A DNA stretch of 64,000 bases from Comamonas sp. (GTDB taxonomy: Bacteria; Pseudomonadota; Gammaproteobacteria; Burkholderiales; Burkholderiaceae_C): the NCBI GenBank assembly GCA_015478895.1, contig JADMKK010000024.1, positions 37,803 to 101,802 on the forward strand, read 5' to 3'. The notes under the pieces are model-generated. The model was not told the DNA's origin. It was given only the letters and a program-made list of their open reading frames with translations, and did no database searches. This document shows positions 15,875-46,510 of this stretch, in pieces. Within the stretch, counting starts at the first letter, position 1. Every line of letters starts with the position of its first letter. A program made the translations under genes and the position numbers.

Positions 15875-15884
15875 AACGTTAGTG

Positions 15885-15921: not shown

Positions 15922-16079
15922 TCCCACTGTTGGCAAAAGAGATATTTTTTGCTTAACGCACTGCATTGCTAGGTGGCGGAGTTAGGCAAAAGGTATTTTT
16001 GGATGGGCAATATGTACGGCATAGGTCTCCATCTTTAAGCTCTACTGAAACTCGGCTGTAACTCTTGACTTAATAACCC

Positions 16080-17078: not shown

Positions 17079-17128
17079 TGCGTAGCTTCTGTTTTAACGA
17101 TTAACTTTACTGACTCGCAGGAGTTCGC

Positions 17129-17740: not shown

Positions 17741-17798
17741 TTCCAACGCATAAAGCAATAAATCTGCCCACTCTTAGAAAACCAATGGAGAGAGAACC

Positions 17799-24046: not shown

Positions 24047-24048
24047 GC

Positions 24049-27386: not shown

Positions 27387-27471
27387 TGGTGCCGCCTTTC
27401 ACTTTCAATATGGCCACGCAGGGCATGCGTATGCTGCCTATCAAAGAGGTGATTCGTGCAAGAGAGGGTAT

Positions 27472-29102: not shown

Positions 29103-29908
29103 AGGCAAAGATGTCCCGCAAAGTACCCGCAGTACCCGCAGTACCCGCACGATTGGCTTCCAACCGAGGTTATGCGCTGTGGGGTGGTATGAGCGGTGCT
29201 TTGCTGGCTTGCCTGGTGTTTGCGCCAGCGGCGTGGCTGGCTACTGCGGTCGAACGTGCATCTGCTGGACAGGTGCGTTTGGTCAATCCTGCGGGAACCA
29301 TCTGGAATGGCTCTGCAGCCTGGGTGCTGACATCGGGAGTGGGTGGCTCCACCTCTCTCAGTCTGCCTTCACGGGTCGCTTGGCGTATCAGGCCCAATGG
29401 GTCAGGTTTGCATGTGGCACTGGACGCTGCCTGCTGCACCCAGGCTCCGGTCAAGCTACAGATATCTCCGCAATCGCTGCGCATTGCAGCCGCAGCAGCA
29501 CACATGCCGATGTCGCTCTTGCAGGGGCTCGGAACACCTTGGAATACGCTGGAATTGCGCGGTGATTTGCAATTGCGATGGGAAAACTTCGCAATGTCCT
29601 GGGCGTCTTCTGCCATCACGATAGAGGGGCTGATGGAGATGCAGGCACGCAGCGTTGCCAGCCGATTGTCCCCCCTGCCAGATGTTGGCTCTTACCAATT
29701 GCATTTGCGTGGTGGTGCACAGCCCCGTGTGGATCTGAGCACGCTGCGTGGAGCGCTGGTGCTCCAAGGGCATGGACATTGGAATAACGCGAAATTTCGC
29801 TTTGAGGGCGAGGCTCATGCCCAGCCAGAGCAAGCCACCGAGCTGGCTAATCTGCTGACGCTGCTGGGAACTCGGCGCGGCAACACAACAATGATTCGAT
29901 GGGGTTGA
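29099..29908 (+). CDS. gspN: T2SS protein N
   Basis: FAPAAWL, GTIWNG, GTPWNTL, GSYQL, LLTLLG. Confidence 0.88.
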   Translation: MKAKMSRKVPAVPAVPARLASNRGYALWGGMSGALLACLVFAPAAWLATAVERASAGQVRLVNPAGTIWNGSAAWVLTSGVGGSTSLSLPSRVAWRIRPNGSGLHVALDAACCTQAPVKLQISPQSLRIAAAAAHMPMSLLQGLGTPWNTLELRGDLQLRWENFAMSWASSAITIEGLMEMQARSVASRLSPLPDVGSYQLHLRGGAQPRVDLSTLRGALVLQGHGHWNNAKFRFEGEAHAQPEQATELANLLTLLGTRRGNTTMIRWG

Positions 29909-32112: not shown

Positions 32113-32120
32113 GGCCACCC

Positions 32121-33476
32121 ATGAGCCAATTGCTTTCTTATGCTTTTGCCAGCCGCCACCATTTGCTGCTGCAAGAAGGGGCGGTTGCCCAGCTGTGGGT
32201 GTGTGAACTCACCCCAGCCAGCGCGATCACGGAAGTGATCCGCAAGTTTGGGCAAATTGCCGTCAGTAGCCTGCCCAGTGAAACCCTGGAGCAGCGTATC
32301 AGTGAGGTTTACAGCGATACCGGTGACGCTGCGCGGTTGGTCAACAGCGTGCAAGACGAGGTTGATATCGGCATGCTGATGCAAGAAGTCGAGCGCACGC
32401 AGGATTTGCTGGCCTCCGAAGACGATGCCCCCGTGATTCGTATCCTCAATGCGCTGCTGCTGGAGGCTGCCAAGGAGGGCGCCAGCGATATTCACATTGA
32501 AGCTTACGAAACCCACTCGGCCGTGCGCATGCGGGTGGATGGGCAGATGCGTGAGATCGCACGTCCCAAGCGCGAGTTGCACAAGGCCTTGATTTCGCGT
32601 TTGAAGATCATGGCAGGGTTGGACATTGCAGAGTCGCGCCTGCCGCAAGATGGGCGCATCAGCACGCGGCTGGGTAACCGGATGATTGATATCCGCGTTT
32701 CCACCTTGCCCAACGCCTATGGCGAGCGGGCCGTGCTGCGTCTGCTCGACAAGTCCAACAACAAGCTCACGCTGGAAAGCGCCGGAATGTCTGGCGATTT
32801 ACTGGCCCGCTTTGATGGTCTGGTACGTCAGCCGCACGGCATTATTTTGGTGACGGGCCCCACAGGTTCGGGCAAAACCACCACGCTGTATTCGGCACTC
32901 AAGCGGCTGGATGCTTCCAGCATGAATATCCTGACGGTGGAAGATCCTATTGAGTATGAGCTGTCAGGCATTGGCCAGACGCAGATCAACGCCAAGATTG
33001 GGTTTAGCTTTGCCGAGGCTTTGCGTTCCATCTTGCGCCAGGATCCGGACGTGGTGATGGTCGGTGAAATTCGCGATGCAGAAACGGCGCAGATTGCCAT
33101 CCAGGCCTCGCTGACAGGTCACTTGGTCATTGCAACCTTGCACACCAATGACGCGCCCAGCGCCGTCACGCGCTTGGTGGAAATGGGCGTGGAGCCTTAC
33201 CTTTTGGCCAGCTCCTTGCTGGGCGTGCTGGCGCAGCGGCTGGTGCGCAAGTGTGACCCGCGTGCGCCCGGTCAGCTGCGGGGGCGCATTGGTATTTATG
33301 AGTTGTTGGTCATCAACCAGCAGATTAAAGATCTGGTCAATCAACATGCCCATGAAAGCGAAATCCGCCGCGCAGCGATTGCCAATGGCATGCAAACCAT
33401 GCGCAGTTATGGCGAAGTTTTGGTGGAGCAGGGAATTACAACCCAGGCCGAAGTCATCATGGCCACGGCAGACTAA
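32121..33476 (+). CDS. gspE: T2SS ATPase lacking the tetracysteine subdomain
   Basis: ASDIHIE, Walker A GPTGSGKTT, EDPIEY, RQDPDVVMVGEIRD, His box TGHLVIATLH. Confidence 0.96.
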   Translation: MSQLLSYAFASRHHLLLQEGAVAQLWVCELTPASAITEVIRKFGQIAVSSLPSETLEQRISEVYSDTGDAARLVNSVQDEVDIGMLMQEVERTQDLLASEDDAPVIRILNALLLEAAKEGASDIHIEAYETHSAVRMRVDGQMREIARPKRELHKALISRLKIMAGLDIAESRLPQDGRISTRLGNRMIDIRVSTLPNAYGERAVLRLLDKSNNKLTLESAGMSGDLLARFDGLVRQPHGIILVTGPTGSGKTTTLYSALKRLDASSMNILTVEDPIEYELSGIGQTQINAKIGFSFAEALRSILRQDPDVVMVGEIRDAETAQIAIQASLTGHLVIATLHTNDAPSAVTRLVEMGVEPYLLASSLLGVLAQRLVRKCDPRAPGQLRGRIGIYELLVINQQIKDLVNQHAHESEIRRAAIANGMQTMRSYGEVLVEQGITTQAEVIMATAD

Positions 33477-33478
33477 CG

Positions 33479-34702
33479 ATGGCCGGCTTTAGCTACGAAG
33501 CGCTGGATGCGCAGGGCCAGACCCAAAAAGGCACGCTGGACGCCGACTCCGCCAAAGCCGCCCGGTCTTTCTTGCGCCACCAAGGGCTGGTGCCTTTGGT
33601 GGTGCAAGAAAGCAAGCACACTGCCAAACGCCAGCAGGCATCTTGGCAATGGGTGCGGCCACGGCCAGCGCTCGCGAAAGCTGAGCTGGCGGTGTGGACA
33701 CGCCAGCTCGCCTCTTTGATGCAGGCCGGTTTGACCATTGAACGCGCCTTGCAAAGCCTCGGTGATGAAACCCAGCAACCGGCCTTGGTGGCGCTGATGG
33801 CCGATGTGCTGGCGCAAGTCAAAAGCGGTAACTCGTTCTCTCAGGCATTGGCACAGCACCCCGCCGAGTTTGATTCGGTGTATTGCGCCGTGGTGAGTGC
33901 CGGTGAGCGCAGCGGCAGTTTGGCGGTGGTGCTCACCAGTCTGGCCGATGATCTGGAAGCGGCGCAACTGCTCAAAAGCAAGATTCTGGGCGCTGCTTTG
34001 TACCCCTTGATTGTCAGCGCCATTGCGGTGCTGATCGTGGTGTTCCTGATGGTCTATGTGCTGCCCCAAGTGGCGGACACGTTTTCCAGCTCCAAGCGCA
34101 GCCTGCCGGTGTTAACCACGGTGATGTTGTGGATCAGTGCGCAACTGAGTCAATGGTGGTGGCTACTGCTGGCCTTGATTGTGTTGGGGGCGGGCAGTGC
34201 CAAACTGGCTTTGCGCCAGCCTGCGTTGCGCCTACGTTGGCATGCGTGGCTCACGCAAGCCCCGGTGCTGGGCAAACTGCTGCGCAACTACAACGCTGCG
34301 CGCTTTTCCAGCACTTTGGGGATGTTGGGCAGCGCGGGGGTGCCCATTTTGCAGGCGCTCAAGGCAGCCACGCAGACCGTGGGCAATCAGGCTATGAAGC
34401 AAGACCTAGAAGACGTCACTCGCATGGTGCGCGAAGGCGCACCACTGGGGCTTGCACTGGCACAAAAACCGCGCTTTCCGAAGCTGGTCAGCACCTTTGC
34501 ACGCTTGGGCGGGGAGACGGGCAACCTCGGCCCCATGCTGCTGCGTGTGGGCAAGCAGCTGTCTGATCAGGTGCAGCGCACCGCCTTGCAACTGGCTTCC
34601 GTGCTGGAGCCGCTGCTGATTCTGAGCATGGGTGTGGTCGTACTCATGATCGTGCTGGCGGTGCTGATGCCCATCATCGAGCTCAATAGCTTTGTGAAGT
34701 GA
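33479..34702 (+). CDS. gspF: T2SS inner membrane protein F
   Basis: TRQLASL, GERSG, ALYP, GETG and EPLLIL repeats of the GspF/PilC family. Confidence 0.96.
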   Translation: MAGFSYEALDAQGQTQKGTLDADSAKAARSFLRHQGLVPLVVQESKHTAKRQQASWQWVRPRPALAKAELAVWTRQLASLMQAGLTIERALQSLGDETQQPALVALMADVLAQVKSGNSFSQALAQHPAEFDSVYCAVVSAGERSGSLAVVLTSLADDLEAAQLLKSKILGAALYPLIVSAIAVLIVVFLMVYVLPQVADTFSSSKRSLPVLTTVMLWISAQLSQWWWLLLALIVLGAGSAKLALRQPALRLRWHAWLTQAPVLGKLLRNYNAARFSSTLGMLGSAGVPILQALKAATQTVGNQAMKQDLEDVTRMVREGAPLGLALAQKPRFPKLVSTFARLGGETGNLGPMLLRVGKQLSDQVQRTALQLASVLEPLLILSMGVVVLMIVLAVLMPIIELNSFVK

Positions 34703-35810
34703 GGGTGTGGGCTTGCAGCAGGCCCTTGGCACTGTGCGGTTCGCAGCGCAGGTACTGGGGGGCGATCTGCATGCTTGCACCCAGTTGGCGCGCGGCTTCC
34801 CACGGCCAGCGCGGGTTGTAGAGCATGGCCCGGGCGACGCCAATGGCATCAGCCTGCTCTGCATCCAGAATGGCTTGCGCTTGCTGGGGCTCGGTAATCA
34901 GGCCCACGGCAATCACCGGCATGCTGCCGTTCAAGGCCTTGCGCAATGCAGCGGCCAACGGCACTTGGTAGCCGGGGCCAACCGGGATCTGCTGCGCAGG
35001 GTGTAAAGCTGCGCTGGAGACATGCAAAAACGCACAAGCGCGTGCGGCCAGGGCGTGGGCCAGCACGGTGCTTTGTTCCACATCCCAGCCGCCTTCCACC
35101 CAGTCAGTGGCAGAAATGCGCACGCCGATGGGGAAATCTGCCGGTAAGGCGGCGCGCATGGCATCCAGCACTTCCAAGGTCAGGCGCATGCGGTTTTCCA
35201 GACTGCCACCATAGGCGTCGCTGCGGAGATTGGACAGCGGTGACAAAAACTGGTGCAGCAAATAGCCGTGTGCAGCATGCAGTTCAATCGCATCAAAACC
35301 CAGTTGGTGGGCCCGCACGGCGGCATCCACAAAGGCCTGGCGAATCTCTGCGATGTCTTGCAGCGTGGCGCTGTGCGGTGTTGGGTCGGTGGGCAAATAG
35401 CCCTGCGCACTGGCGCTGATCGTGGACCATGCCTGCGAGTGATTGGCGGCCATGGCACCCCCGCCTTCCCAAGGGCGCAGGCTGCTGGCTTTGCGGCCTG
35501 CATGCGCCAGCTGGATGCCCAGTGGCATGGGGCTGTACTGGCGAATGTGCGCCAGCACGGGCTGCAAGGCCTGGGCCTGGGCATCACTCCACAGCCCCAA
35601 GTCATAAGCGCTGATACGCCCGCGTGCTTCGACGGCGGTGGCTTCAAAAATCAAAAGTCCGGCGCCTGATTGCGCCAGGTTGCCGTAGTGCATGGTGTGC
35701 CAGCTGGTGGCGCAACCATCTTGTGCAGAGTACATGCACATGGGCGGAATGACGATGCGATTGCTCAGGGCGAGGCGGCCCAGATGAACGGGTGAAAACA
35801 ATGTGGACAT
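34683..35810 (-). CDS. NADH:flavin oxidoreductase (old yellow enzyme family)
   Basis: PPMCMYS, QLAHAGRK, ELHAAHGYLLHQFLSP, NLRSDAYGGSLENR. Confidence 0.95.
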   Translation of the reverse strand: MSTLFSPVHLGRLALSNRIVIPPMCMYSAQDGCATSWHTMHYGNLAQSGAGLLIFEATAVEARGRISAYDLGLWSDAQAQALQPVLAHIRQYSPMPLGIQLAHAGRKASSLRPWEGGGAMAANHSQAWSTISASAQGYLPTDPTPHSATLQDIAEIRQAFVDAAVRAHQLGFDAIELHAAHGYLLHQFLSPLSNLRSDAYGGSLENRMRLTLEVLDAMRAALPADFPIGVRISATDWVEGGWDVEQSTVLAHALAARACAFLHVSSAALHPAQQIPVGPGYQVPLAAALRKALNGSMPVIAVGLITEPQQAQAILDAEQADAIGVARAMLYNPRWPWEAARQLGASMQIAPQYLRCEPHSAKGLLQAHTLTSQSY

Positions 35811-36257: not shown

Positions 36258-37259
36258 ATGGCTGACAACACATTCGTTAAGACATCGCTTTCAAGACGCA
36301 GTTGGGTCTTGGGTGGTCTGGCATTCGGAACTTCTTTGGGTTGGGGCCTCCCCCTCGCAACTGCCCAAGCACGTGCCTTGAAGCTCATCATTCCTTACAC
36401 CCCGGGTGGTTCCACTGATATTGCGGGCCGCATTTTTGCGCAAGCGGTTGGGCAGGAGATGGGCGTAACCATCGTGCCTGAAAACAAGGGCGGCGCTGCC
36501 GGTCTGATCGGCATGCAAGAAGTCGTGCGCTCTAAAGCGGATGGGACCGTGTTTGGTGTCAGCGGAATCGGCACCACGGCGCTGGTCGCGGTGACTCAGA
36601 AAAATCCACCCTATGATTTCCAGCGTGACTTGGAGGCGGTCGGCCACTTGGGTGCTTTTGGCAGCTTGGTGCTCACCCGTGCTAGCAGTCCATTTCAGAC
36701 CTTGCAGGAGATGGTGGCACACGCCAAGAAAAATCCTGAGTCGCTGTCCTTTGGTACGCCGCCCAATGGATCTCCCAGTTATTTGACGCTGAAGTATTTG
36801 CAGGATGCTGCAGGCATCCGAATCCTTGATGTGCCCTACAAGGGGCACACCGAGATTCTGAATGGTGTGCTGTCCGGAGAAATTGATCTCGGCATCGTGT
36901 CAGTACCCCAAGCGCAGGAACTGGTCAAGAACAAGAAACTCAAAGCGTTGGCCGTGACCAGTGCCAAGCGCTCCAATAGCGTGCCAGAAGTCCCTACGGT
37001 GGCTGAGTCGGGCTACCCCGGGTTTGAAGCCACATTGTGGAATCTCATCGTGTGTCGCAAGGGCACTGACCGCGAATTACTGCAACGCATGAATGCGGCC
37101 ATCAACAAGGCCATGGCACATCCAGACGTGCAAAAGCAGCTGCATCTGCAAAGCATTGAATTTGAGCCCTTTACGCTCCAACAAACCCAGGCTTTTGTCG
37201 CGGCAGAAACGCAGAAGTGGGAACGTATCGCCAAGCTGGTGAACCTCAAACCTGTTTGA
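36258..37259 (+). CDS. Tripartite tricarboxylate transporter substrate-binding protein (Bug/TctC)
   Basis: IIPYTPGGSTD, ENKGGAAG, VPYKG, VPTVAESG; twin-Arg-like SRRSW leader. Confidence 0.93.
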   Translation: MADNTFVKTSLSRRSWVLGGLAFGTSLGWGLPLATAQARALKLIIPYTPGGSTDIAGRIFAQAVGQEMGVTIVPENKGGAAGLIGMQEVVRSKADGTVFGVSGIGTTALVAVTQKNPPYDFQRDLEAVGHLGAFGSLVLTRASSPFQTLQEMVAHAKKNPESLSFGTPPNGSPSYLTLKYLQDAAGIRILDVPYKGHTEILNGVLSGEIDLGIVSVPQAQELVKNKKLKALAVTSAKRSNSVPEVPTVAESGYPGFEATLWNLIVCRKGTDRELLQRMNAAINKAMAHPDVQKQLHLQSIEFEPFTLQQTQAFVAAETQKWERIAKLVNLKPV

Positions 37260-37272
37260 GTGAATATGCACT

Positions 37273-37668
37273 ATGACTAAAAAAATTGAAGCCTCACCAC
37301 TGGGCACCTACCGTGCTTATTTGCAAAAGGAGCAACTGGCCTATCAGTACAGCCCTGAAGCAGGCCGTGCGGTGTTTTTTCCGCGCCTGGTGTGCCCCTT
37401 TTCTGGCAGTACTCACTTGGAGTGGCGCGTGAGCAAGGGCTTGGGAGAGGTGCACGCAAGCACCGTGGTCTACCCCAAGGATGCGCAGCCCTACAACGTG
37501 GCACTGATTGAGCTCGATGAGGGTTTTCGCATGATGAGCCGTGTCGAGGATATGGACCCGCACAACGTGAAGATTGGCCAGCGCGTGCGTGTGCGGTTTG
37601 TTGTAGAGGCTGGTGCGCCTGCACCTTTGCCTGTCTTTGTGCCCCAAGAGGAAGAAAACAATGACTAA
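37273..37668 (+). CDS. DUF35 / OB-fold protein (ChsH2-C-like) with degenerate Zn ribbon
   Basis: FPRLVCP, LEW, GEV-x-x-STVV, YNVALIELDEGFRMMSRV; precedes the thiolase-like gene. Confidence 0.9.
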   Translation: MTKKIEASPLGTYRAYLQKEQLAYQYSPEAGRAVFFPRLVCPFSGSTHLEWRVSKGLGEVHASTVVYPKDAQPYNVALIELDEGFRMMSRVEDMDPHNVKIGQRVRVRFVVEAGAPAPLPVFVPQEEENND

Positions 37669-38812
37669 TCGACGTGGCAGTGTCGCCATTGTGGGAGTCG
37701 CGGAGTCAGACCTGGGTGAAGTTGCGCAGGGCATGACGCCAGTGGATCTGATGGCGCAAGGAATGGTGCGTGCGCTGGATGATTGTGGCCTGCAACTCAA
37801 GGATGTCGACGGCTTGTTTGGTGCCGCGACACAAAGTCGCATGGTCACTCTGGCCTTGCGTGAGTATTTGGGTATTCAGCCACGTTATGGCGATTCCACT
37901 TATTTGGGTGGTTCGTCGTTCATGACCCATGTTGCCCATGCGCAGGCTGCCATTCAGGCGGGCTTGTGTGAAGTGGCTGTCATCACCTATGGCAGTACCC
38001 AGCGAAGTGATGGTCGCTCTGCGACGGGTGGCAGGGAGACCAATCCTTATGAAACGCCCTATAAGCCGTTCATGCCCTCTACGGCTTATGCATTGGCCGC
38101 ATCCCAGCACATGCACAAATACGGCACAACCCGTGAGCAGCTCGCAGAAATTGCAGTGGCTGCCCGGCAGTGGGCGTTGCTCAATCCGGCAGCTTGGGAG
38201 AAAAAACCGCTGACAGTGGAGGATGTCCTCAATTCTCGAATGATCAGTTACCCACTCACTGTACGTGACTGCTGTCTGGTCACTGACGGGGGTGGTGCGA
38301 TTGTGCTGACCTCTGCTGAGCGTGCAAAAGATCTGAAAAAACCTGCGGCCTATGTATTGGGTTGTGGTGAGTCGTACAGCCATCAGTCGATCTCCAATAT
38401 GGCGAATTTGACGGTCACGGCGGCCAAGCAGTCGGGGGAAAAGGCTTATGCCATGGCAGGCCTGGGGCCCAGAGATGTCAATGTGCGCGAGCTGTATGAC
38501 GCATTCACACTGACCACGCTGCTGTTTCTGGAAGACCTGGGTTTTTGCCAGAAAGGTGAGGGAGGGATTTTTGTCGCAGATGGCAAGTTGCGTCCTGGCG
38601 GTGCAATGCCGACCAACACCAATGGCGGGGGACTTTCCTATTGCCATCCTGGCATGTACGGCCTCTTTTTGCTGATCGAAGCCACGCGGCAGGTTCGCGG
38701 TGAATGCAATGCACGCCAGGTGGCTGGCTGCGATGTCGCTTTGGCACATGGCAACGGCGGGGTTTTGTCCAGCCAGAGCACTGTCATTTTGGGTAGCGCA
38801 GCTACGTTGTAA
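37661..38812 (+). CDS. Thiolase-fold protein lacking catalytic cysteines (Ltp2/SCP2-like)
   Basis: DCCLVTDGGGA, ELYDAFT, NTNGGGLSYCHPG, EATRQVRG. Confidence 0.9.
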   Translation: MTNRRGSVAIVGVAESDLGEVAQGMTPVDLMAQGMVRALDDCGLQLKDVDGLFGAATQSRMVTLALREYLGIQPRYGDSTYLGGSSFMTHVAHAQAAIQAGLCEVAVITYGSTQRSDGRSATGGRETNPYETPYKPFMPSTAYALAASQHMHKYGTTREQLAEIAVAARQWALLNPAAWEKKPLTVEDVLNSRMISYPLTVRDCCLVTDGGGAIVLTSAERAKDLKKPAAYVLGCGESYSHQSISNMANLTVTAAKQSGEKAYAMAGLGPRDVNVRELYDAFTLTTLLFLEDLGFCQKGEGGIFVADGKLRPGGAMPTNTNGGGLSYCHPGMYGLFLLIEATRQVRGECNARQVAGCDVALAHGNGGVLSSQSTVILGSAATL

Positions 38813-38861
38813 AAATTAAGGCCGCACTGCTGCGGCTTTTCAATTGCTTGTAAAGAAGAAC

Positions 38862-39998
38862 ATGGACGAAACCGAAGTCATGCTGGCGGATGCCGCGGAG
38901 GTCATGCTCAAGGATCGCCACGACAAAGAGCGTCTGCGTCAGGTATATCAAGGACGCAACGCCTATAGCCGTGCGTTGTGGCGTGAAATGGCAGAACAGG
39001 GGTGGCTGGCCATCAGCTTGTCCGAAGAGCTGGGTGGATCGGGGCTTTTGTCTCGCCATGCGGCAGTGATTGCCAAGGCCCTGGGTCAGCACGTGGTGCC
39101 AGAACCTTTTGTGAGCAGCGCAGCGATGGTGGCCTGTTTGGCTAATCATCTGCAGGTACAAAACGCTGCAGCTTGGCAACCCATCATTGAGAGCTTGCTC
39201 AGTGGCGACACCTGGGTCGCGCCCGCATGGCAAGAGTTTGCAAATACGGCTGGCGTAGCACCGACGCTGCAAGCGCAGCCAGGTGCGGCTGGCACGGTGC
39301 GTTTGCAGGGTGTCAAGCAAGCCGTCATTGCTGCGGACATGGCAGATCACTTGCTGGTAACGGCTTTCGACGGCACACAGGTTCAACTGTGGAGCGTCCC
39401 CTCCAGTGCGCCAGGTGTGGCGCTAGAAACTACTCTGGGCAGCGATGGCAGCAGTGTGGCGCGAGTGTCTTTCTCCCAAGTCGAAGTGGCACCTGCGCAA
39501 TGCTTAGGGCGCGGCGACGCGGTATTGCAAGCCTTGCTGCAAGCCCACGAGCTAGCGCTGGTGCTGACCAGCGCTCAACTTCAAGGAGTTGCTGAGCAGG
39601 CCTTGTACTTGACCGTGGAATACATGCGCACACGCCAGCAGTTTGGTAAGGCCATTGGAAGTTTTCAGAGCTTGCAACACTTGGCTGTGGATGCACGGGT
39701 TCAGCAGGCCCTTGGGCAAGCAGCCCTGAATGCAGCATTGCGCGATTTGGACGGACAGACCAGTACAACCACTGTGCGTAGCACCGTCGCGCGGGCCAAG
39801 GCGCGAACTGCGCACGCAGCACAAATGGCGGGGCGTTTTGGCGTGCAAGCCCATGGTGCTATTGGCTTTGCTGCCGAAGCAGACATTGGCTTGTATCTGA
39901 AATCTGCTTTGCGCCTGTCGGCCTACTTGGGCAATAGCAGCCACCAACGTCAACACGTCGCACAAGAACTTTTCGCGCAAGCACAGGTGTCCGCATGA
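38862..39998 (+). CDS. Acyl-CoA dehydrogenase family protein (probable non-catalytic-type subunit)
   Basis: RQQFGKAIGSFQSLQH, QAHGAIGF; short, degenerate C-terminus. Confidence 0.9.
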   Translation: MDETEVMLADAAEVMLKDRHDKERLRQVYQGRNAYSRALWREMAEQGWLAISLSEELGGSGLLSRHAAVIAKALGQHVVPEPFVSSAAMVACLANHLQVQNAAAWQPIIESLLSGDTWVAPAWQEFANTAGVAPTLQAQPGAAGTVRLQGVKQAVIAADMADHLLVTAFDGTQVQLWSVPSSAPGVALETTLGSDGSSVARVSFSQVEVAPAQCLGRGDAVLQALLQAHELALVLTSAQLQGVAEQALYLTVEYMRTRQQFGKAIGSFQSLQHLAVDARVQQALGQAALNAALRDLDGQTSTTTVRSTVARAKARTAHAAQMAGRFGVQAHGAIGFAAEADIGLYLKSALRLSAYLGNSSHQRQHVAQELFAQAQVSA

Positions 39999-41155
39999 GT
40001 CAGCAGTTTGATTTCAACCGTCTTAACAACGAAGAGTTTCGCCGTCGCTGGTCGAGCTGGATTGCGCAAAATTATCCCTCTGAGCTGCGCAATCCACTCA
40101 AGCGACTGACTGGGGATGAGGCACGCCAATGGTTGCGTGCGCAGTTGCGGGATGGTTGGCGTGCGCCTAGCCTGCCCCGGGATTTCGGTGGAATGGGCCT
40201 GAGCCTAGACAAACAACTGATCTACCAAGAAGAGCTGGAAACCTATGGCGTGGCGCGCCCGATTGACCACGGCCTGCGTTTATTGGCGCCGGTGTTGCTC
40301 AAGTATGGAACGGCCGAACAGAAGGCCACTTATCTGCCCCGCATTCTGAATTGTGAGGACATGTGGTGCCAAGGCTATTCCGAGCCTAACGCGGGTTCTG
40401 ATCTGGCCAACCTGAAAACCAGTGCAGTGGTCGATGGTGACGACTTTGTAGTCAATGGTCAGAAGATCTGGACCACCTTGGCAACCGATGCCAGCAAAAT
40501 TTTTATGCTGGTTCGCACCAGTACGGAAGGCAAGAAGCAGCAAGGCATGACCTTTTTGCTGGCAGACCTGGATACACCCGGCATCAAGATTCGCCCCATC
40601 CGCACCCTGGCTGGCGATGAGCATTTTTGTGAGATTTTCTTTGATGACGTGCGTGTGCCTCGTGCCAATGTTGTCGGGCAGGTGGGTGATGGCTGGACGG
40701 TGGGTAAGGCATTGCTGGGGTTTGAGCGTTTTAGCCATGGTTCACCAGAACTGATTCGCTATGCCTTGGGCGTGCTGCATCAAGCAGGTGATGTGATGGG
40801 GTTGTCTCACCAGCAAAGTTTCCAGCAATTGCTGGGCGGGTTCGAGTGCGATGTGGCCGATGCCGGTGCGCTGTATGAGCAGGTATGTGAAGTCGCTTTG
40901 TCAGGAGGCAATGCCGATGATGATTTCTCAATGCTCAAACTCTTTAACAGCGAGACTTTGCAGCGCATTGCCGAGGCGTGTACCGAGGTCGTCAATCAGT
41001 ACGGCGGACTGATGGGTGAAGAGGCTATCCCTGGCCTGGGCACCGACCTTGAGTGGCTCTACATGATCACGCGCCCCGTCACCATTTTTGGCGGAACAGC
41101 ACAGGTGCAGCGTAATTTGCTGGCGGCCCGCACGCTAGGGTTGCCCAAATCCTAA
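39995..41155 (+). CDS. Acyl-CoA dehydrogenase family protein
   Basis: WCQGYSEPNAGSDLA, NGQKIWTT, LGFER, TIFGGT; overlaps the upstream ACAD by ATGA. Confidence 0.93.
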   Translation: MSQQFDFNRLNNEEFRRRWSSWIAQNYPSELRNPLKRLTGDEARQWLRAQLRDGWRAPSLPRDFGGMGLSLDKQLIYQEELETYGVARPIDHGLRLLAPVLLKYGTAEQKATYLPRILNCEDMWCQGYSEPNAGSDLANLKTSAVVDGDDFVVNGQKIWTTLATDASKIFMLVRTSTEGKKQQGMTFLLADLDTPGIKIRPIRTLAGDEHFCEIFFDDVRVPRANVVGQVGDGWTVGKALLGFERFSHGSPELIRYALGVLHQAGDVMGLSHQQSFQQLLGGFECDVADAGALYEQVCEVALSGGNADDDFSMLKLFNSETLQRIAEACTEVVNQYGGLMGEEAIPGLGTDLEWLYMITRPVTIFGGTAQVQRNLLAARTLGLPKS

Positions 41156-41245
41156 GTGAACAGAGGCTGTAGCCACTGCGCTGCAGTCCATTCTTTTTTG
41201 TCTTCAAGCACAGACACTGTGCCCCTATTGGACCGAGCTTGCCCC

Positions 41246-43342
41246 ATGACATACCAGTCTCTTGATCCTTTGTTTTCCCCGGCATCCATTGCCGTGATTG
41301 GCGCCTCTTCTGACCCGCGCAAGATTGGCGGACGTCCCATTGCCTATATGTTGCGCAGTGGTTATGCCGGCAAAATTTTGCCGATTAACCCCAAACAGTC
41401 TGAAATTCAGGGGTTGCCAGCTTTCGCCTCTTTGGCGGCTGTGGGCCATCCTGTGGACCAAGTGATCGTGGCAGTGTCCGGAGCCTTGGTAGAAGGCGCG
41501 GTAGAAGAAGCACTGGCGCAGCAGGCGCGCTCGATTGTGATTTTCAGCTCCGGGTTCGGCGAAGTCGGACATGAAGGCAAGCAAAAGCAGGAGGAGCTGG
41601 CGCGTCGCTGTGCTGATGCAGGTGTGCAATTGGTTGGCCCCAATTGCATCGGCATTTTCAGCACCCGTAATGCCATGTATTCCACCTTCATGAGCGCTTT
41701 AGAGCACGAAATGTTTGAGCCTGGCAATGTGGGTATCGTGAGCCAGAGTGGTGCTATTGGCTCTTACCTCTACGGCCTGGCAGGTGACCGTGGTGTGCGT
41801 TTCAGCCACTTTGTGGCAACGGGCAATGAAGCTGGTGTGGACGTAGCGGCCTGCATCGAGTGGATGGCACACGATCCCAATACCAAGGTGATCTTGGCCT
41901 ATCTGGAAGGTTGTCAAGATGGCTACCGGCTGCGCAATGCCTTAGAGACTGCACGCCAGCAACGCAAGCCCGTGGTGGTCATGAAAGTCGGCGCGTCTGA
42001 GCAAGGTGCTGCAGCTGCCGCCTCTCACACAGGGTCACTGGCAGGCGCTGATGTGGTGTTTGACAGCGTTTTTAAGGAGTGCGGTGCTTGGCGCGCTCAG
42101 ACCATGGAAGAGCTGGTGGATATTGCCTATGCCTGTTCTATCTCCGTGCTGCCCCATGGCAATCGACTGGGCGTTATCACGCCATCGGGTGGGATTGGTG
42201 TCATTGCTGCTGACGAGTGTGAGCGCAGTGGTCTGGTGCTGCCGCATTTGCCAGAGAAGTTGCAGGCAGAGATCAAGTCCATCGTGCCGTTTGCCAGTGG
42301 TGTGAACCCGGTCGACACGACCGGACAGGTTGTTAGCGATCGTCAGCTCTTCAACAAGATCATGAAGATCGTGTTTGAGTTCGACGGCTTTGACAGCATT
42401 CTGAGTTTTAACGCCAACATTGGAAAAACAGAGATTGAGTGGGGCAAGGTGCGGGATGATCTGCTGGCGTTACGTCGCCAGCACCCCGAGAAATTGGTGG
42501 CGCTGAGCATGCGTTCTGCTCCCGAAGTGGTGAAGGAACTGGAAGATCACCAGATCCTTTACTTTTCGGATACGGCCGTGGCGACGCGCACCATCGGTGC
42601 CTTGGCATGGATTGCTCAGGCCCAGCAGTGGCCCGCCATGTCCGTGCCTGCCGCTGCACCTGCCCAGGCTGCGCTGCAATGGTCCGAAGCGGCCATTGAT
42701 GAAGCGCAGGCGCGCCAGATTTTGGAGGTAGCTGGCATTCCTTTTGCCCCGCAGAAAGTGGTCGACAGTGCCCAGGCTGCGGCCCAGGCGGCTGCAGAAA
42801 TGGGCTTTCCCGTGGTGATCAAGGTGCTGTCGCCGGACATTGCTCATAAGAGCGATGTAGGTGGCGTGCTGCTGAATCTGGCTACGGAACAAGAGGTGTT
42901 GGAGGGCTGGAAACGCATGATGGACCAGGTGCACAGCCATTGTCCGGATGCACGTCTGCAAGGCGCGGTCGTGTCGCCGATGATCAAAGGTGGCACGGAA
43001 ACTGTATTGGGCATGGTCAATGACCCCGTCTTTGGCCCCATGGTCATGTTTGGTCTGGGCGGTATCTTTGTAGAAATTTTCAAGGATGTGAAGTTCCACA
43101 CTGCGCCGCTGAACATGGCCCAAGCCCAGACAATGATCAGCTCCATCAAGGGCTTTCCTTTGCTCGACGGCGCGCGTGGCAAACCAAAAGCCGATGTGCA
43201 TTGCCTGGCCCAGGCGCTGGTCAGCCTGTCTAACTTTGTATTTGACAATGCCGCCGACTTGGCCAGCGTAGAAATCAATCCTTTTATCGCCTTGCCGCAG
43301 GGCGGTTACGCCGTGGACGCGCTGATTATTCGTCGCAGCTAA
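41246..43342 (+). CDS. ADP-forming acyl-CoA synthetase (acetate-CoA ligase family, fused subunits)
   Basis: IAVIGAS CoA-binding domain, GPNCIG, ASHTGSLAG (phospho-His), HKSDVGGV ATP-grasp, EINP. Confidence 0.93.
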   Translation: MTYQSLDPLFSPASIAVIGASSDPRKIGGRPIAYMLRSGYAGKILPINPKQSEIQGLPAFASLAAVGHPVDQVIVAVSGALVEGAVEEALAQQARSIVIFSSGFGEVGHEGKQKQEELARRCADAGVQLVGPNCIGIFSTRNAMYSTFMSALEHEMFEPGNVGIVSQSGAIGSYLYGLAGDRGVRFSHFVATGNEAGVDVAACIEWMAHDPNTKVILAYLEGCQDGYRLRNALETARQQRKPVVVMKVGASEQGAAAAASHTGSLAGADVVFDSVFKECGAWRAQTMEELVDIAYACSISVLPHGNRLGVITPSGGIGVIAADECERSGLVLPHLPEKLQAEIKSIVPFASGVNPVDTTGQVVSDRQLFNKIMKIVFEFDGFDSILSFNANIGKTEIEWGKVRDDLLALRRQHPEKLVALSMRSAPEVVKELEDHQILYFSDTAVATRTIGALAWIAQAQQWPAMSVPAAAPAQAALQWSEAAIDEAQARQILEVAGIPFAPQKVVDSAQAAAQAAAEMGFPVVIKVLSPDIAHKSDVGGVLLNLATEQEVLEGWKRMMDQVHSHCPDARLQGAVVSPMIKGGTETVLGMVNDPVFGPMVMFGLGGIFVEIFKDVKFHTAPLNMAQAQTMISSIKGFPLLDGARGKPKADVHCLAQALVSLSNFVFDNAADLASVEINPFIALPQGGYAVDALIIRRS

Positions 43343-43389
43343 CGTGCAGCGGTGCAGAAGGCCTCCTGGCCGATGACACCGCTTCCATC

Positions 43390-43426
43390 AACAAAAAGGG
43401 CACTTTCTGAGAGTGCCCTTTTTGTT
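43390..43426. terminator. Bidirectional terminator inside the island
   Basis: AACAAAAAGGGCACT...AGTGCCCTTTTTGTT between convergent genes. Confidence 0.88.
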
Positions 43427-43465
43427 GCGTGCAAATGTCGAGGAACTAAATGCTTGGCCGCTACT

Positions 43466-44326
43466 TTAAGCGGCAGGGGCAATCGTGGCCCATCCGTTGT
43501 CCAGAACCTTGGCACCACGTTCTTGTGCAAATGCACGAAAGGCGATGCCGTCGCCTTCATGCCACGTCTCAAATTGCAATGTTTCTCCGGGAAAAACGCT
43601 GGCAGAAAAACGTGTATCCAGCGACAGCAGACGCTGCGGGGCGTAATCCAGCCAGCCTTTTAACAACGCACGTGCAGCCATGCCGTAGGTGCACAGACCA
43701 TGCAGTGGTGGTTGTGTGAAACCCGCTTTGTGTGCCACGGCTGGGTCCACATGCAAGGGGTTACGGTCCACATTCAAGCGATACAGCAATGCGGCACATG
43801 CTGAGGTTGGCAGGGTAATGATTTGATCTGCGGGCCGTGTGGGCAAGGCCTTGAGCGTCAGCGTTTCGCCGAAGGAGCCACAGCCACCATCGGCTCTGCA
43901 AAACGAAGAGTGCCGGATGGTAATAAACAGCGTGCCGTCTTCGCCAACGAGCTGGCGCTCAAGATGCAAGATTGCCCCTTTTTCGCTGCCCTTGTCCTGA
44001 ATGCCAATGACGCGTGCCTTGGAGACTAGGTAGCCATTGGCAGGCAGCGGCTGATGGAACTGCATGCGTTGCTCGCCATGCACCACCTTACTGCGAGTTG
44101 CGCCCGTGCGCGGGTCTGTCAGCCAGGCACCGGGATGGCACAGCACGGCACCCATGGTGGGAACCGCGCGCAATTGTTGCTCATAAACAAAAGGCAGCTC
44201 CTGCTCGTTCAGTGGATCAGCACCAAAGCCCAGGCTCAACGCGTACAGCATGACATCTTTGTCAAGGTACACCGTGCGGACCTCTGGGAACTCCCAATTT
44301 TTCAGGTTTTCAATATGCAGTGGCAT
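43466..44326 (-). CDS. MaoC double-hot-dog (R)-specific enoyl-CoA hydratase
   Basis: VVHGEQ, YRLNVDRNPLHVDP hydratase-2 motif, PPLHGLCTYG. Confidence 0.92.
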   Translation of the reverse strand: MPLHIENLKNWEFPEVRTVYLDKDVMLYALSLGFGADPLNEQELPFVYEQQLRAVPTMGAVLCHPGAWLTDPRTGATRSKVVHGEQRMQFHQPLPANGYLVSKARVIGIQDKGSEKGAILHLERQLVGEDGTLFITIRHSSFCRADGGCGSFGETLTLKALPTRPADQIITLPTSACAALLYRLNVDRNPLHVDPAVAHKAGFTQPPLHGLCTYGMAARALLKGWLDYAPQRLLSLDTRFSASVFPGETLQFETWHEGDGIAFRAFAQERGAKVLDNGWATIAPAA

Positions 44327-44383
44327 CGTCGTAAAGCGCAAAAAGGCCTGTACAGGCCTTTGGTGGATGGAAGGGAGAAAGAA

Positions 44384-45307
44384 TTAAATGGCTTCCCAGG
44401 AAATCACATCCTTGGTGCGCTCCAGGGGCGTCAAACTGTTCTTGAATGCATTCGGGAGCGTCTGTGCAATTGAGTCCACCGACCAGCCTTCACTGCGGTG
44501 CAAAGTGCGTGTGGGGCGGGGTTGGTTGTAGAGGTAAATTTCATTGCCGCGTGCGCCAAAAATCTGACCGCTGATGGTTTTTGCTGCGTCAGCGCACAAA
44601 AAGGCCGCCAGCGGTGCAATCTGCTCGGGGCGTGTGCTCTGGCGGCGTTTTTCCAGGTATTTTTCTTGCTCTTGCGGCGACAGACCTGGCACGCTTTCGA
44701 TCATGCGGCTGAATGCATGGGGGGCAATGCAATTGGAGCGCACGCCAAAACGTGCCATGTCCATCGCCATGGAGCGCGACAGTCCCACAATGCCCATTTT
44801 GGCTGCGGCATAGTTCGCCTGACCAATGCCACCGATTAATCCGGAGGTCGACGTCATATGTACCAACGCACCTGCGCCTTGTTCACGGAAATGCACTGCG
44901 GCTGCACGGCTCATATTGAACGCGCCATACAAATGCACTTTGATGACGGAGTCGAAATCACTGGGTGTCATCTTGTGAAAAATCGAATCCCGCAAAATGC
45001 CAGCGCTGTTGACTACGGCATCCACGCGGCCAAATGCTGTGATGGCAGCGGCAATGATGGCTTCTGCGCTGTCCCACTCGGAGACGCTGAGCGTGTTGGC
45101 GATGGCTTTACCGCCAAAAGCGGTGATCTCATTGACCACTTCTTGCGCAGCAGACAGTTTTTCCTGCTCGCCATTGAGCGAAACACCCAGGTCATTGACA
45201 ACCACCTGCGCGCCTTCTTTGGCCAGCTCAATGGCTACGCTGCGGCCAACGCCGCCGCCAGCACCGGTAACGACGACAACTTTGTCTTGGAGAGATGGAG
45301 TGTTCAT
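44384..45307 (-). CDS. SDR oxidoreductase (MFE-2-like 3-hydroxyacyl-CoA dehydrogenase type)
   Basis: TGAGGGVG, VVVNDLG, NSAGILRD, YAAAK catalytic motif. Confidence 0.93.
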   Translation of the reverse strand: MNTPSLQDKVVVVTGAGGGVGRSVAIELAKEGAQVVVNDLGVSLNGEQEKLSAAQEVVNEITAFGGKAIANTLSVSEWDSAEAIIAAAITAFGRVDAVVNSAGILRDSIFHKMTPSDFDSVIKVHLYGAFNMSRAAAVHFREQGAGALVHMTSTSGLIGGIGQANYAAAKMGIVGLSRSMAMDMARFGVRSNCIAPHAFSRMIESVPGLSPQEQEKYLEKRRQSTRPEQIAPLAAFLCADAAKTISGQIFGARGNEIYLYNQPRPTRTLHRSEGWSVDSIAQTLPNAFKNSLTPLERTKDVISWEAI

Positions 45308-45464
45308 ATCTTATGGAGTAAGTGCGAATGAAAGCTTCACGCCAGTGGCGCTGTGTGAGGCCATTCTTGCGTTTCGCTGACCCGGGCATGCAGCGAAAAA
45401 GTCATAATGCTTTACAAAAAATCAATTCTTGAAGCCCATCGCGCAGACCGGAGTACCCCTCACC

Positions 45465-46355
45465 ATGAAGATGCCGCCCCTTAATCCACTGCACGTGTTT
45501 TCCATCGTGGCGCGGCACCAAAGCCTGCTGACTGCGGCGCAGGTTCTGGGGGTGACACAGTCCGCAGTCAGACGCCAGATTTCATCGTTGGAAGATTATT
45601 ACGGCTGCAAACTTTTCAAAAGAAAACGATACGGTTTAGAAGTTTTACCTTTTGCGCAAGACTTGGCGAAAGAAGTGGCGGGGGCATTTGAATTAATTGA
45701 GCAGCAATCAGAAAAATTAAAAAAATCGCTAGAAAAAAATATCAATGAAGTCACTATTAAAACTTACACAAGTTTTGCTGGTAACTGGTTGATTCCTAAT
45801 CTCAGTGAGTTTTTTGCCTTGCATCCTGAAATAAAAATCGTAATTAAAACTGGAGCCAAGCCCATTGATTTTCGAGAAAATGAGGGTGATATTTCTATTC
45901 AAATCATTAATCATGATAAAAATGGCTATCAATCGACACTTTTGTTTGAGGATACTATTGAGCCTGTGTGTTCACCAGAATTTCTCAAGAAATATGCTCC
46001 CAATCCCAAGTACCCATCGTCCATACTAAGACAGCCTGTCATTACGACGGATTATCGAGATTTTGACTGGAACACCTGGGTCGATCAATGTGGCTATCAA
46101 GAAGACTTTAAACCAGACAGAAGTTTGAATCTTGGTAATGCTTTGCTGGCTTGGGATGCAGCTGCCAATGGTATTGGTGTGGCCATGGGGCAAACCATAC
46201 TGTTAAAAGAGAAAATTAAAAATAACAGATTAACTACGCCATTTAATTTGCCTGTGAAAACAGGTATGAAATACTATGTCATTTTGCCTGAGAAAAATGC
46301 GAAGGCTGGGGCATTGATTTTCAAGGAATGGTTATTGAAGAAGTTTTTGTTTTAA
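45465..46355 (+). CDS. LysR-family regulator (GcvA-like), AT-rich
   Basis: HTH LGVTQSAVRRQISSLE, LFKR, WLIPNLSEF; divergent from the SDR gene. Confidence 0.92.
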   Translation: MKMPPLNPLHVFSIVARHQSLLTAAQVLGVTQSAVRRQISSLEDYYGCKLFKRKRYGLEVLPFAQDLAKEVAGAFELIEQQSEKLKKSLEKNINEVTIKTYTSFAGNWLIPNLSEFFALHPEIKIVIKTGAKPIDFRENEGDISIQIINHDKNGYQSTLLFEDTIEPVCSPEFLKKYAPNPKYPSSILRQPVITTDYRDFDWNTWVDQCGYQEDFKPDRSLNLGNALLAWDAAANGIGVAMGQTILLKEKIKNNRLTTPFNLPVKTGMKYYVILPEKNAKAGALIFKEWLLKKFLF

Positions 46356-46430: not shown

Positions 46431-46510
46431 ATAGCAGCATGCCGTTAAAGAAAAAGGGTTTCAGATACTTATCTATCTGAAACCCTTGATACGTGCCGGC
46501 AAGCCGCTAT
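46431..46510. repeat. 80-bp palindromic element, copy 4
   Basis: ATAGCAGCATGCCG...CCGGCAAGCCGCTAT ends; inner AGGGTTTCAGATA/TATCTGAAACCCT. Confidence 0.8.

Follow-up and report, generated by a model that had tools for sequence, protein, structure and literature searches.

The gene cluster

Positions 36258-46355 of the stretch of Comamonas sp. DNA considered here (contig JADMKK010000024.1, positions 37,803 to 101,802; 64,000 nucleotides, the whole of which we call the window) carry a set of acyl-CoA enzymes that includes a thiolase-like protein (THL) and, encoded directly upstream of it, a DUF35 protein. Homology points to a retro-aldolase and gene context points to the slot of a thiolase, and these two lines of evidence pull apart.

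Based on the open reading frame (ORF) listing and on Pfam and NCBIfam scans of the window proteins, a plus-strand operon at 36258-43342 encodes, in order, a TctC protein, the DUF35 protein, THL, a small and a large acyl-CoA dehydrogenase (ACAD), and an acyl-CoA synthetase. A minus-strand pair, encoding a MaoC hydratase and a short-chain dehydrogenase/reductase (SDR), converges on this operon, and a LysR gene is divergent from the SDR-MaoC pair. The gene content described in a first-pass annotation of the DNA (two ACADs, an ADP-forming CoA ligase, a MaoC hydratase, an MFE-2-like SDR, a TctC protein, and a LysR protein) is confirmed by the Pfam and NCBIfam matches. THL (37661-38812, plus strand) is an SCP2-thiolase-fold protein of 383 aa (Pfam Thiolase_C_1, 218 bits). 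Its ATG at 37661 lies inside the gene for the free-standing, 131-aa DUF35 protein (37273-37668, plus strand), whose stop codon, TAA, occupies 37666-37668; the overlap that had been noted between the two genes measures 8 nt, and a Shine-Dalgarno-like stretch, GAGGAAGAA, lies upstream of the THL start.

A thiolase fold without the catalytic cysteines

Several proteins of the same fold serve as references below. Three are true thiolases: BbsB of the benzoylsuccinyl-CoA thiolase BbsAB (7PXP), Pyrococcus 7YVY, and the Methanothermococcus thiolase/hydroxymethylglutaryl-CoA synthase/DUF35 complex (6ESQ). Two are retro-aldolases: Ltp2, which in the complex TcLtp2-ChsH2(DUF35) acts on the steroid C3 side chain (6OK1), and Sal, which in the Comamonas testosteroni complex CtSal-CtShy(DUF35) acts on the bile-acid C5 side chain (9MYR; J Biol Chem 2025, PMC12329534).

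Translation recovers exactly, at their computed coordinates, the four THL motifs named at first pass, and all ten of the claims made there about sequence content hold: LGGSS (37904-37918), YDAF (38495-38506), YCHP (38639-38650), and HGNGG (38747-38761), all on the plus strand. In pairwise and profile alignments, Gly84, the second Gly of LGG, falls opposite the nucleophilic Cys of 7YVY (EAACASGG) and 6ESQ (EAACASGS), and the spacing from Gly84 to the downstream I..G helix motif is, we take it, that of classical thiolases. The counterparts of YDAF, which contains Tyr279 and Ala281, are HDAF in BbsB and 7YVY, HDCF in 6ESQ, YDCY in Sal, and YDHF in Ltp2. Tyr279 thus corresponds to the catalytic bases Tyr294 of Ltp2 and Tyr302 of Sal, and Ala281 occupies the position of the catalytic Cys304 of Sal. 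The GHP His of BbsB, 7YVY, and 6ESQ has its counterpart in His329 of YCHP, a position held by Tyr344, the catalytic acid, in Ltp2 and by Gln352 in Sal. HGNGG forms a Gly-rich C-terminal loop where thiolases have the CxG/oxyanion-hole loop. When the alignments are checked for a Cys at a catalytic position, they place Gly84 at the nucleophile site and Ala281 in YDAF and show no Cys in HGNGG.

In total, THL has the thiolase fold, the Thiolase C-terminal domain, and the GHP His, and it lacks both the nucleophilic Cys (helix N-alpha3) and the acid/base Cys (HDCF loop or CxG). What sets THL diagnostically apart from thiolases is Gly84 in place of Cys and Tyr279 in place of His. YDAF had been read as a whole as a departure from thiolases, and this stands for its Tyr; its Ala is shared with the true thiolases BbsB and 7YVY, and loss of the HDCF Cys alone is a weak criterion. 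Similarly, the description of THL as cysteine-less fits both catalytic positions but not the protein, which contains nine Cys.

A widespread family with a conserved active site

THL is a member of NCBIfam PRK06158 (606.7 bits; cutoff, 421) and carries the motifs of the PRK06158/4U4E subfamily, GG(S/A)S, YD(A/S)F, xHPGM, and HG(N/T)GG, which it shares with representatives at 50-60% identity. The structure 4U4E, a "putative thiolase" of Sphaerobacter thermophilus from structural genomics (2014), is ~52% identical to THL over its full length (E 4e-120). GGSSF is common to both proteins, whereas 4U4E has YDSF for YDAF, YTHPGMY for YCHPGMY (with Thr where THL has Cys328), and HGTGG for HGNGG; it was also solved without a DUF35 partner.

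The orthogroup examined here comprises 81 THL orthologues of at least 69% identity from Alpha- and Betaproteobacteria, with 80 genome loci. G83, G84, S86, Y279, D280, A281, F282, H329, P330, G331, G364, G366, and G367 are invariant in all 81. Further out, an alignment of 40 sequences that spans 36-84% identity shows no variation at Y279 and D280, and H329 is kept in at least 90% of its sequences. Nearly all of the best 99 full-length representatives (35-60% identity) have Gly at the nucleophile position, and the third residue of YDxF is variable among them (Ala, Ser, Cys, His, Asn, or Pro). The closest relatives are found in the Comamonadaceae (Variovorax and Acidovorax, 87%; Ottowia, 83-84%), identity between alphaproteobacterial and betaproteobacterial orthologues is 70%, and the family extends from these classes as far as the Chloroflexi. 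A word-indexed search for relatives returned at least 8,000 matches, and a scan of 1.84 billion cluster representatives returned 12,042 at E <=1e-3 and 1,345 at E <=1e-30, the last figure counting clusters at the 50% identity level and including more distant thiolase-fold relatives. Judged from these alignments, the Gly84/YDAF/His329 set is a family trait and not a peculiarity of the window. As an instance of a very common gene pair, the window is unremarkable, and the interest lies in a puzzle at the level of the family.

Could THL be an ordinary thiolase in which the nucleophile has been displaced, either to another Cys (Cys205, Cys328, or a Cys of DUF35) or to Ser85 or Ser86? We regard this as very improbable. 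Within the orthogroup, Cys205 (in a DCC motif) is invariant and Cys328, adjacent to His329, nearly so, and databases name the family acetyl-CoA acetyltransferase. However, Cys328 is replaced by Thr, Ala, Gln, or Asn in relatives at 45-60% identity, including 4U4E, and Ser85 and Ser86 vary across the family (Ala, Cys, Thr, and Gly). The DCC motif does not track with activity, because it is present in true SCP2-type thiolases and Ltp2 and absent from Sal. The database names, in turn, are automatic annotations. Ser85/Ser86 and Cys328 were therefore rejected as substitute nucleophiles, as they are not conserved beyond the orthogroup, and a DUF35 Cys acting in trans was rejected because the sole Cys of the ribbon is Ala in many orthologues.

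A DUF35 partner that has lost its zinc ribbon

The DUF35 protein matches only OB_ChsH2_C in Pfam, and its relatives in the PDB are 6HTJ, the DUF35 domain of CtShy (9MYR_B), and that of ChsH2 (6OK1_B). Its OB fold is kept and its N-terminal zinc ribbon is degenerate, with YSPEAG...VCPFSGS in place of CxxC...CxxC; three of the four ribbon Cys are lost, and Pfam finds no zf-ChsH2 domain in the window protein. This state is general in the orthogroup: as in the window, the ribbon is degenerate in 80/80 DUF35 orthologues (loci L003-L082), and the remaining Cys is often Ala. The DUF35 gene lies directly upstream of THL in 80/80 loci. Among distant representatives on short contigs (P0122, P0123, P0127, and P0133), the DUF35 gene can lie downstream and can keep the zinc ribbon. 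The DUF35 subunits of the BbsAB, 7YVY, and 6ESQ thiolases presumably have an intact ribbon, and there seems to be no earlier description of a zinc-free DUF35.

With both catalytic Cys of THL and the zinc site of DUF35 gone, one may ask whether the pair is a noncatalytic scaffold that holds a hydratase and a dehydrogenase together while a housekeeping thiolase elsewhere performs thiolysis. A precedent for such a hub exists in Sulfolobus acidocaldarius, where an SDR and a MaoC protein bind to a ketothiolase (KT)/DUF35 pair, a set with the same enzyme types as the window cluster; that ketothiolase we take to have a catalytic Cys. Still, a dead enzyme is unlikely given that active-site positions stay invariant or nearly so: Tyr279, Asp280, His329, and the Gly-rich loops persist from 36 to 100% identity, and the Alpha- and Betaproteobacterial orthologues have remained as similar to each other as noted above. 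Moreover, hydratase and dehydrogenase genes are missing from many loci, which leaves nothing to hold together. On balance, we consider a pure scaffold quite unlikely.

The nearest characterized relatives

An AlphaFold2 model of THL is of moderate quality (pLDDT 68; pTM 0.75) and poor in the active-site loops 83-85, 193-208, and 310-332; it was used for fold ranking only, and no geometry was taken from it. The fold search ranks 4U4E first, then the Sal aldolase, and then the Ltp2 aldolase. Profile scores agree in placing the aldolases (CtSal, 389 bits; TcLtp2, 317 bits) ahead of true thiolases (<=279 bits). The kinship to Ltp2 proposed at first pass is thus upheld, with Sal, the best-scoring characterized relative, closer still.

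CtSal resembles THL in its thiolase fold, in Gly at the nucleophile position, in the catalytic Tyr of YDxx, in having a DUF35 partner, and in its comamonad origin. It differs in its need for Cys304 (in YDCY), the position of Ala281 in THL, and in having Gln352 where THL has His329; C304A and C304S each abolish Sal activity (PMC12329534). Of the Tyr302/Cys304 dyad of Sal, then, THL has the Tyr and not the Cys. The DUF35 that partners Sal makes up the C-terminal domain of Shy, a hydratase, and has a Cys3His1 zinc finger, whereas that of the window is free-standing and zinc-less. The pathways differ as well, in that Sal operates with an aldehyde dehydrogenase (ALDH), Sad, and without a 3-hydroxyacyl-CoA dehydrogenase, and the window cluster has an SDR and no ALDH.

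TcLtp2 likewise lacks both catalytic Cys and has the base Tyr of YDxF, and like THL it has a DUF35 partner and genes for an alpha2beta2 ACAD and a MaoC hydratase nearby. In Ltp2, Tyr294 is the catalytic base and Tyr344 the catalytic acid (PMC12329534). THL keeps the former as Tyr279; the latter is absent, and the earlier proposal that the active site is wired differently from that of Ltp2 is borne out by Ala281 and His329, as against YDHF and Tyr344. In the Ltp2 complex, DUF35 is fused to ChsH2, the hydratase, and its zinc ribbon has four Cys, whereas the window protein is free-standing and has lost the ribbon. Finally, Ltp2 is set among steroid genes and the window cluster is not. Based on these comparisons, THL would most likely work like Ltp2 and Sal while being a member of neither group. 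To our knowledge, these two enzymes, with Tyr/Tyr and Tyr/Cys layouts, respectively, are the only characterized nucleophile-less, DUF35-dependent thiolase-fold enzymes, and both are steroid specific.

Companion enzymes and hints of the substrate

The small, divergent ACAD subunit (38862-39998, plus strand; 378 aa) is PimD/IpdE2/ChsE5-like: its Pfam N and C domains score above cutoff and its middle domain below (24 bits), its best NCBIfam matches, pimD_small and IpdE2, both fall below cutoff, and its best PDB matches are Tcur3481 (6WY8_A) and ChsE5 (4X28_D). The large subunit (39995-41155, plus strand; 386 aa), whose gene overlaps that of the small one by 4 nt, is PimC/ChsE4-like in Pfam, NCBIfam, and PDB comparisons, with ChsE4 (4X28_A, E 7e-48) and Tcur3483 (6WY8_B) as best PDB matches. 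As expected for an alpha2beta2 steroid-type ACAD, the adjacent genes are dissimilar and each matches a different heterotetramer subunit. Because this holds for both ChsE4/ChsE5 and Tcur3483/Tcur3481, the pair likely forms a heterotetramer, predicted to act on a bulky acyl group.

The fused, NDP-forming (ADP-forming) acyl-CoA synthetase (41246-43342, plus strand; the ORF opens at 41156, and the likely start is the ATG at 41246) contains the Pfam domains CoA_binding_2, Succ_CoA_lig, and ATP-grasp_5 and a phospho-His motif, SHTGSLAG. Its best NCBIfam matches are the ADP-forming 4-hydroxybutyrate, acetate, and 3-hydroxypropionate CoA ligases, all below cutoff. The product of the first gene of the operon is a periplasmic solute-binding protein of the TctC/Bug family (36258-37259, plus strand; 333 aa from the ATG; Pfam TctC, 190 bits) with a twin-arginine-like leader, SRRSWVLGG. 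The ORF opens at 36213, and the 333-aa call agrees with the call on an identical contig. No TctA or TctB gene is found among the genes of 36258-46355, the remainder of the window being annotated in part; orphan TctC genes are usual in Betaproteobacteria.

On the minus strand, the MaoC protein (43466-44341; likely start, ATG at 44326) is a double hot-dog (R)-specific enoyl-CoA hydratase 2 by Pfam (MFE-2_hydrat-2_N and MaoC_dehydratas), matches the hydratase 2 of human MFE-2 best in the PDB (1S9C, E 8e-46), and carries the hydratase-2 motif D-x-N-P-x-H as DRNPLH, with its Asp and His kept. The SDR (44384-45307; 307 aa) is an MFE-2-type protein predicted to be a (3R)-hydroxyacyl-CoA dehydrogenase: its best PDB match is the (3R)-hydroxyacyl-CoA dehydrogenase 2ET6 (E 1e-101), followed by the MFE-2 structures 1GZ6 and 1ZBQ, it has the motifs TGAGGGVG and YAAAK (catalytic YxxxK), and its NCBIfam match, PRK07791 (274 bits), is below cutoff. 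By these matches, SDR and MaoC together are a split MFE-2, predicted to act as (3R)-hydroxyacyl-CoA dehydrogenase and hydratase 2. The cluster contains the enzyme types of the peroxisomal MFE-2 plus SCPx thiolase system, namely, a (3R)-dehydrogenase of the SDR type, a hydratase 2, and an SCP2-type thiolase-fold protein. In gene content, it reads as a split bacterial version of the peroxisomal branched-chain beta-oxidation set in which the thiolase-fold component lacks the nucleophile; SCPx thiolase, unlike THL, has a catalytic Cys.

The LysR-type regulator (45465-46355, plus strand; Pfam HTH_1 and LysR_substrate; the ORF opens at 45429, and the likely start is the ATG at 45465) is GcvA-like, with the GcvA subfamily as best NCBIfam match (204 bits, below cutoff). 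Its layout, divergent from SDR-MaoC, is found also in Variovorax (L003) and Achromobacter (L089).

What, then, is the substrate? The TctC protein, the ADP-forming synthetase, the ChsE-like ACADs, and the subthreshold PimC/PimD matches are hints of a bulky, branched, or dicarboxylic acid. The branched or substituted carboxylate proposed at first pass is supported to the extent that a ChsE4/ChsE5-like ACAD pair fits a bulky or branched acyl group. A dicarboxylate, on the other hand, would bring in another type of chemistry, in which THL-DUF35 performs an acid-base reaction that needs only an oxyanion hole, such as an isomerization or the decarboxylation of a malonyl-type (2-carboxy) acyl-CoA, the 2-carboxyacyl-CoA arising from the dicarboxylate. 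TctC proteins bind di- and tricarboxylates, ADP-forming synthetases include pimeloyl-CoA synthetase, and the models that fit the ACADs best, though below cutoff, are those of the pimeloyl-CoA dehydrogenase PimC and PimD. TbSLP, which is also nucleophile-less, has weak malonyl-CoA decarboxylase activity. Yet TbSLP works at a very low rate, CtSal does not decarboxylate malonyl-CoA, the ACAD scores are far below the PimC/PimD cutoffs (236 versus 624 and 142 versus 653), and no gene of the cluster obviously generates a 2-carboxyacyl-CoA. We therefore think that chemistry of this kind is unlikely.

Neighborhoods in other genomes

Counts of neighboring genes are approximate, as they come from ORF calling filtered by GC content at third codon positions (GC3), tblastn, and motif scans at the 80 orthologous loci. 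The genes that flank DUF35-THL differ from locus to locus, and nearly all of them encode acyl-CoA enzymes. The TctC gene is near THL in about 24-26 of the 80 loci; a 706-aa FadB-type hydratase/dehydrogenase in 22-24, in Alphaproteobacteria and usually as the next gene on the same strand; and the NDP-forming synthetase in 19. Crotonase-type hydratases register at 36 loci by tblastn, where many of the hits are the hydratase domain of FadB, and a separate crotonase family is present at 17. ACADs accompany THL at about 15 loci, an MFE-2-type SDR at 13, family III CoA-transferases at about 11, and MaoC at 7 or more. The operons DUF35-THL-MaoC-SDR, SDR-MaoC-DUF35-THL2, and DUF35-THL-FadB recur. The full cluster of the window type is found again in Variovorax, Acidovorax, and Achromobacter, and Ottowia keeps DUF35-THL-ACAD-ACAD-synthetase-TctC with no MFE-2 pair within 10 kb.

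Two further arrangements were observed. In Achromobacter aegrifaciens (L089, 14704-19956), a second operon, SDR-MaoC-DUF35(zf)-THL2, lies beside the orthologue of the window cluster. In this second operon, DUF35 keeps zf-ChsH2, with CxxC...CxxC, and the paralogous THL2 has the motifs GGCS, YDAF, and YTHTG, such that the canonical nucleophile position is without Cys and a Cys follows one residue later. The GGCS type is also present in the representatives P0126, P0129, and P0162. At three loci of Burkholderiales and Pseudomonadota (L010, L022, and L037), an acyl-CoA synthetase-DUF35-THL-FadB operon is accompanied by a divergent operon for a canonical thiolase, an enoyl-CoA hydratase, and an ACAD. 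A Cys-bearing thiolase and a Cys-less THL thus coexist in one cluster, and that three loci carry both argues that the two are not redundant.

A retro-aldol lyase?

The identities of the genes come from the data, and the activities of the enzymes we infer. We tentatively favor a model in which DUF35-THL would be a two-subunit retro-aldol C-C lyase that works without an acyl-cysteine intermediate, as the last step of an R-specific beta-oxidation module that is complete in itself. In this model, the TctC protein would bind an imported carboxylate, probably bulky or branched, in the periplasm; the ADP-forming synthetase would make its CoA ester; the ChsE4/5-like alpha2beta2 ACAD would convert this to the 2-enoyl-CoA; and the MaoC hydratase 2 would produce the (3R)-hydroxyacyl-CoA. 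THL-DUF35 would then cut the C2-C3 bond by general acid-base catalysis, yielding acetyl-CoA or propionyl-CoA and a carbonyl product. We posit that Tyr279 would serve as the base on the beta-oxygen and that His329 would serve as the acid or as an oxyanion-hole partner for the thioester enolate, a putative third catalytic layout, Tyr plus His, beside Tyr plus Tyr in Ltp2 and Tyr plus Cys in Sal. The LysR protein may control the divergent SDR-MaoC operon. Hsd4A and FadA5 act beside Ltp2 in steroid side-chain degradation, and we speculate that, in like manner, the MFE-2-type SDR would serve other, thiolytic rounds of the same pathway.

Several observations argue for a retro-aldolase. The nearest characterized relatives by both profile and fold, CtSal and TcLtp2, are retro-aldolases and rank ahead of thiolases; Gly stands at the nucleophile position, as in both of them; the invariant Tyr279 matches the Tyr that is essential in both; and His329, at the position of the acid Tyr344 of Ltp2, could take over that role. 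The constant DUF35 partner is in keeping with Ltp2-ChsH2 and Sal-Shy, which are likewise complexes, and the ACAD pair and MaoC are the enzyme types that feed Ltp2 and Sal. In addition, 10 of the 80 loci have a hydratase near THL without a dehydrogenase, and the three loci that have a canonical thiolase besides THL suggest that THL does something else.

Other observations weigh against such a lyase, and they make the retro-aldol reading plausible but strained. Both known general acids are gone, as Cys304 of Sal has become Ala and Tyr344 of Ltp2 has become His. The cluster includes an intact, true MFE-2-type (3R)-hydroxyacyl-CoA dehydrogenase, for which a retro-aldol route has no use. The neighborhood analysis of homologues proposed at first pass, which bore out the link to DUF35 at every locus, found a dehydrogenase within -7/+8 kb of THL at 35 of the 80 loci and immediately after THL, in the same orientation, at 22 (15 FadB and 7 SDR). 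These dehydrogenase partners are opposite in stereospecificity, S-type FadB in Alphaproteobacteria and R-type MFE-2 in Betaproteobacteria, and the active-site residues of THL are identical in the two. An aldehyde product would need an ALDH, so the scarcity of ALDH-like genes counts against the model as well; PROSITE-type signatures were found at ~2/80 loci, with none in the window cluster. The DUF35 protein is free-standing and zinc-less, and not fused to a hydratase as in both known aldolase systems. Lastly, literature searches found no publications on the THL subfamily, 4U4E, or PRK06158. The retro-aldol pathway put forward in the first-pass annotation therefore keeps its basis in homology to Sal and Ltp2, and it is these features of context and partner that do not sit well with it.

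Possible cleavage of a 3-oxoacyl-CoA in the thiolase slot

Given that dehydrogenases are nearby and that both ALDH and canonical thiolase signatures are almost absent (the latter found at 3/80 loci by PROSITE-type signatures), THL appears to stand in the slot of a thiolase. Does it then cleave, without a Cys nucleophile, the 3-oxoacyl-CoA delivered by the MFE-2-type SDR or by FadB? We consider this possible, though doubtful. The simplest chemistry would be a retro-aldol-type cleavage of the ketone hydrate, in effect a hydrolytic retro-Claisen reaction. The change from Cys to Gly84 would make room for water, which, activated by His329 or Tyr279, would lead to acetyl-CoA and a free acid that is two carbons shorter. 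A less likely variant is that CoA attacks directly, in a ternary complex. A Tyr/His cleavage of a 3-oxo hydrate might, by inference, reconcile homology with context.

Cleavage of a 3-oxoacyl-CoA has much in its favor on the side of context. Ligase, ACAD, hydratase 2, (3R)-dehydrogenase, and THL would make up one full cycle in which every gene is used and no ALDH is needed, and the three recurrent operons unite DUF35 and a THL with just such hydratases and dehydrogenases. The 3-oxoacyl-CoA is the sole intermediate common to S- and R-type partners, and the active site of THL is invariant beside both. Canonical thiolase signatures are absent from 77/80 loci, and ALDH signatures are absent from ~78/80. 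THL keeps the thiolase His that is replaced in Ltp2 and Sal, and its DUF35 partner is a free-standing protein, a trait of the true thiolases BbsAB and the archaeal complexes as well. The KT/DUF35 pair of S. acidocaldarius docks an SDR and a MaoC protein, and in peroxisomes, MFE-2 works with an SCP2-type thiolase. A precedent for the products exists in the step assigned to Atu1421, a beta-oxidative deacetylation that gives a free acid and acetyl-CoA.

However, we know of no thiolase-fold enzyme that cleaves 3-oxoacyl-CoA without a nucleophilic Cys, and the closest assayed relatives of THL are aldolases that act on 3-hydroxyacyl-CoA. Hydrolysis would also waste one thioester per cycle, and the linkage is partial, as both hydratase and dehydrogenase are missing near THL at 35/80 loci. 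On the 3-oxo route, a large proteobacterial thiolase-fold family would have replaced thiolysis, cleaving 3-oxoacyl-CoA without a covalent acyl-enzyme, by ketone-hydrate hydrolysis or by CoA attack, in a complex with a zinc-less DUF35, and docking MFE-2-type or FadB-type partners; we rate this joint proposal as a possibility that is rather less than probable.

Why does the distinction matter? The THL subfamily is much larger than the Ltp2 and Sal kinds and shows a third layout, Tyr/His; its genes occupy the place expected of a thiolase, next to intact 3-hydroxyacyl-CoA dehydrogenases. If 3-oxoacyl-CoA is the substrate, then thousands of "acetyl-CoA acetyltransferase" genes are misnamed, and there is a new way of ending the beta-oxidation cycle; if the enzyme is a retro-aldolase, then that family extends well beyond steroids. 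Either outcome would correct a very common automatic annotation.

Surroundings of the cluster

No ring-degradation genes were seen, in agreement with the first-pass annotation, in a window that was annotated in part outside 36258-46355. The flanks are housekeeping or core chromosomal DNA. A block of tricarboxylic acid (TCA) cycle genes at 8687-20390 includes gltA, sdhA, mdh, a gene for a CitE-like HpcH/HpaI protein, and acnB; mutS is also present in the flanks; and a type II secretion operon (26391-34702; homologues of GspK, L, N, D, E, and F) ends ~1.5 kb upstream of the cluster. Downstream lie TonB/TolA-like and TolQ/ExbB-like genes, an aminotransferase gene, gshA, and a gene for a methyl-accepting chemotaxis protein. 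The idea that the cluster is a foreign island is unsupported by these flanks and by GC content, which is 0.51-0.57 here and 0.50-0.54 in the TCA genes. The 12-18 kb part of the TCA region, at 0.52-0.54, is as low as the THL cluster, and low GC is therefore no sign of foreign origin in this window. A tRNA scan found no tRNA, and an Rfam scan found no Rfam family.

Just upstream of the TctC gene and on the opposite strand is a gene for an NADH:flavin oxidoreductase of the Old Yellow Enzyme family (34683-35810, minus strand), which is also present on an identical metagenomic contig. It was rejected as a member of the cluster, as Variovorax and Acidovorax loci with the cluster intact lack it. Window DNA was found in metagenomes from bovine, pig-gut, dairy, digester, compost, wastewater, and groundwater sources; of the 24 sequencing runs listed with it, none is labeled as RNA.

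At 22586-24097, long ORFs overlap on the two strands, 470 aa on the plus strand and 486 aa on the minus strand, and the product of the former has no Pfam match. Between the LysR gene and the TonB/TolA-like gene, a hairpin at 46454-46487, with a perfect 14-bp stem and T runs, looks like a bidirectional terminator.

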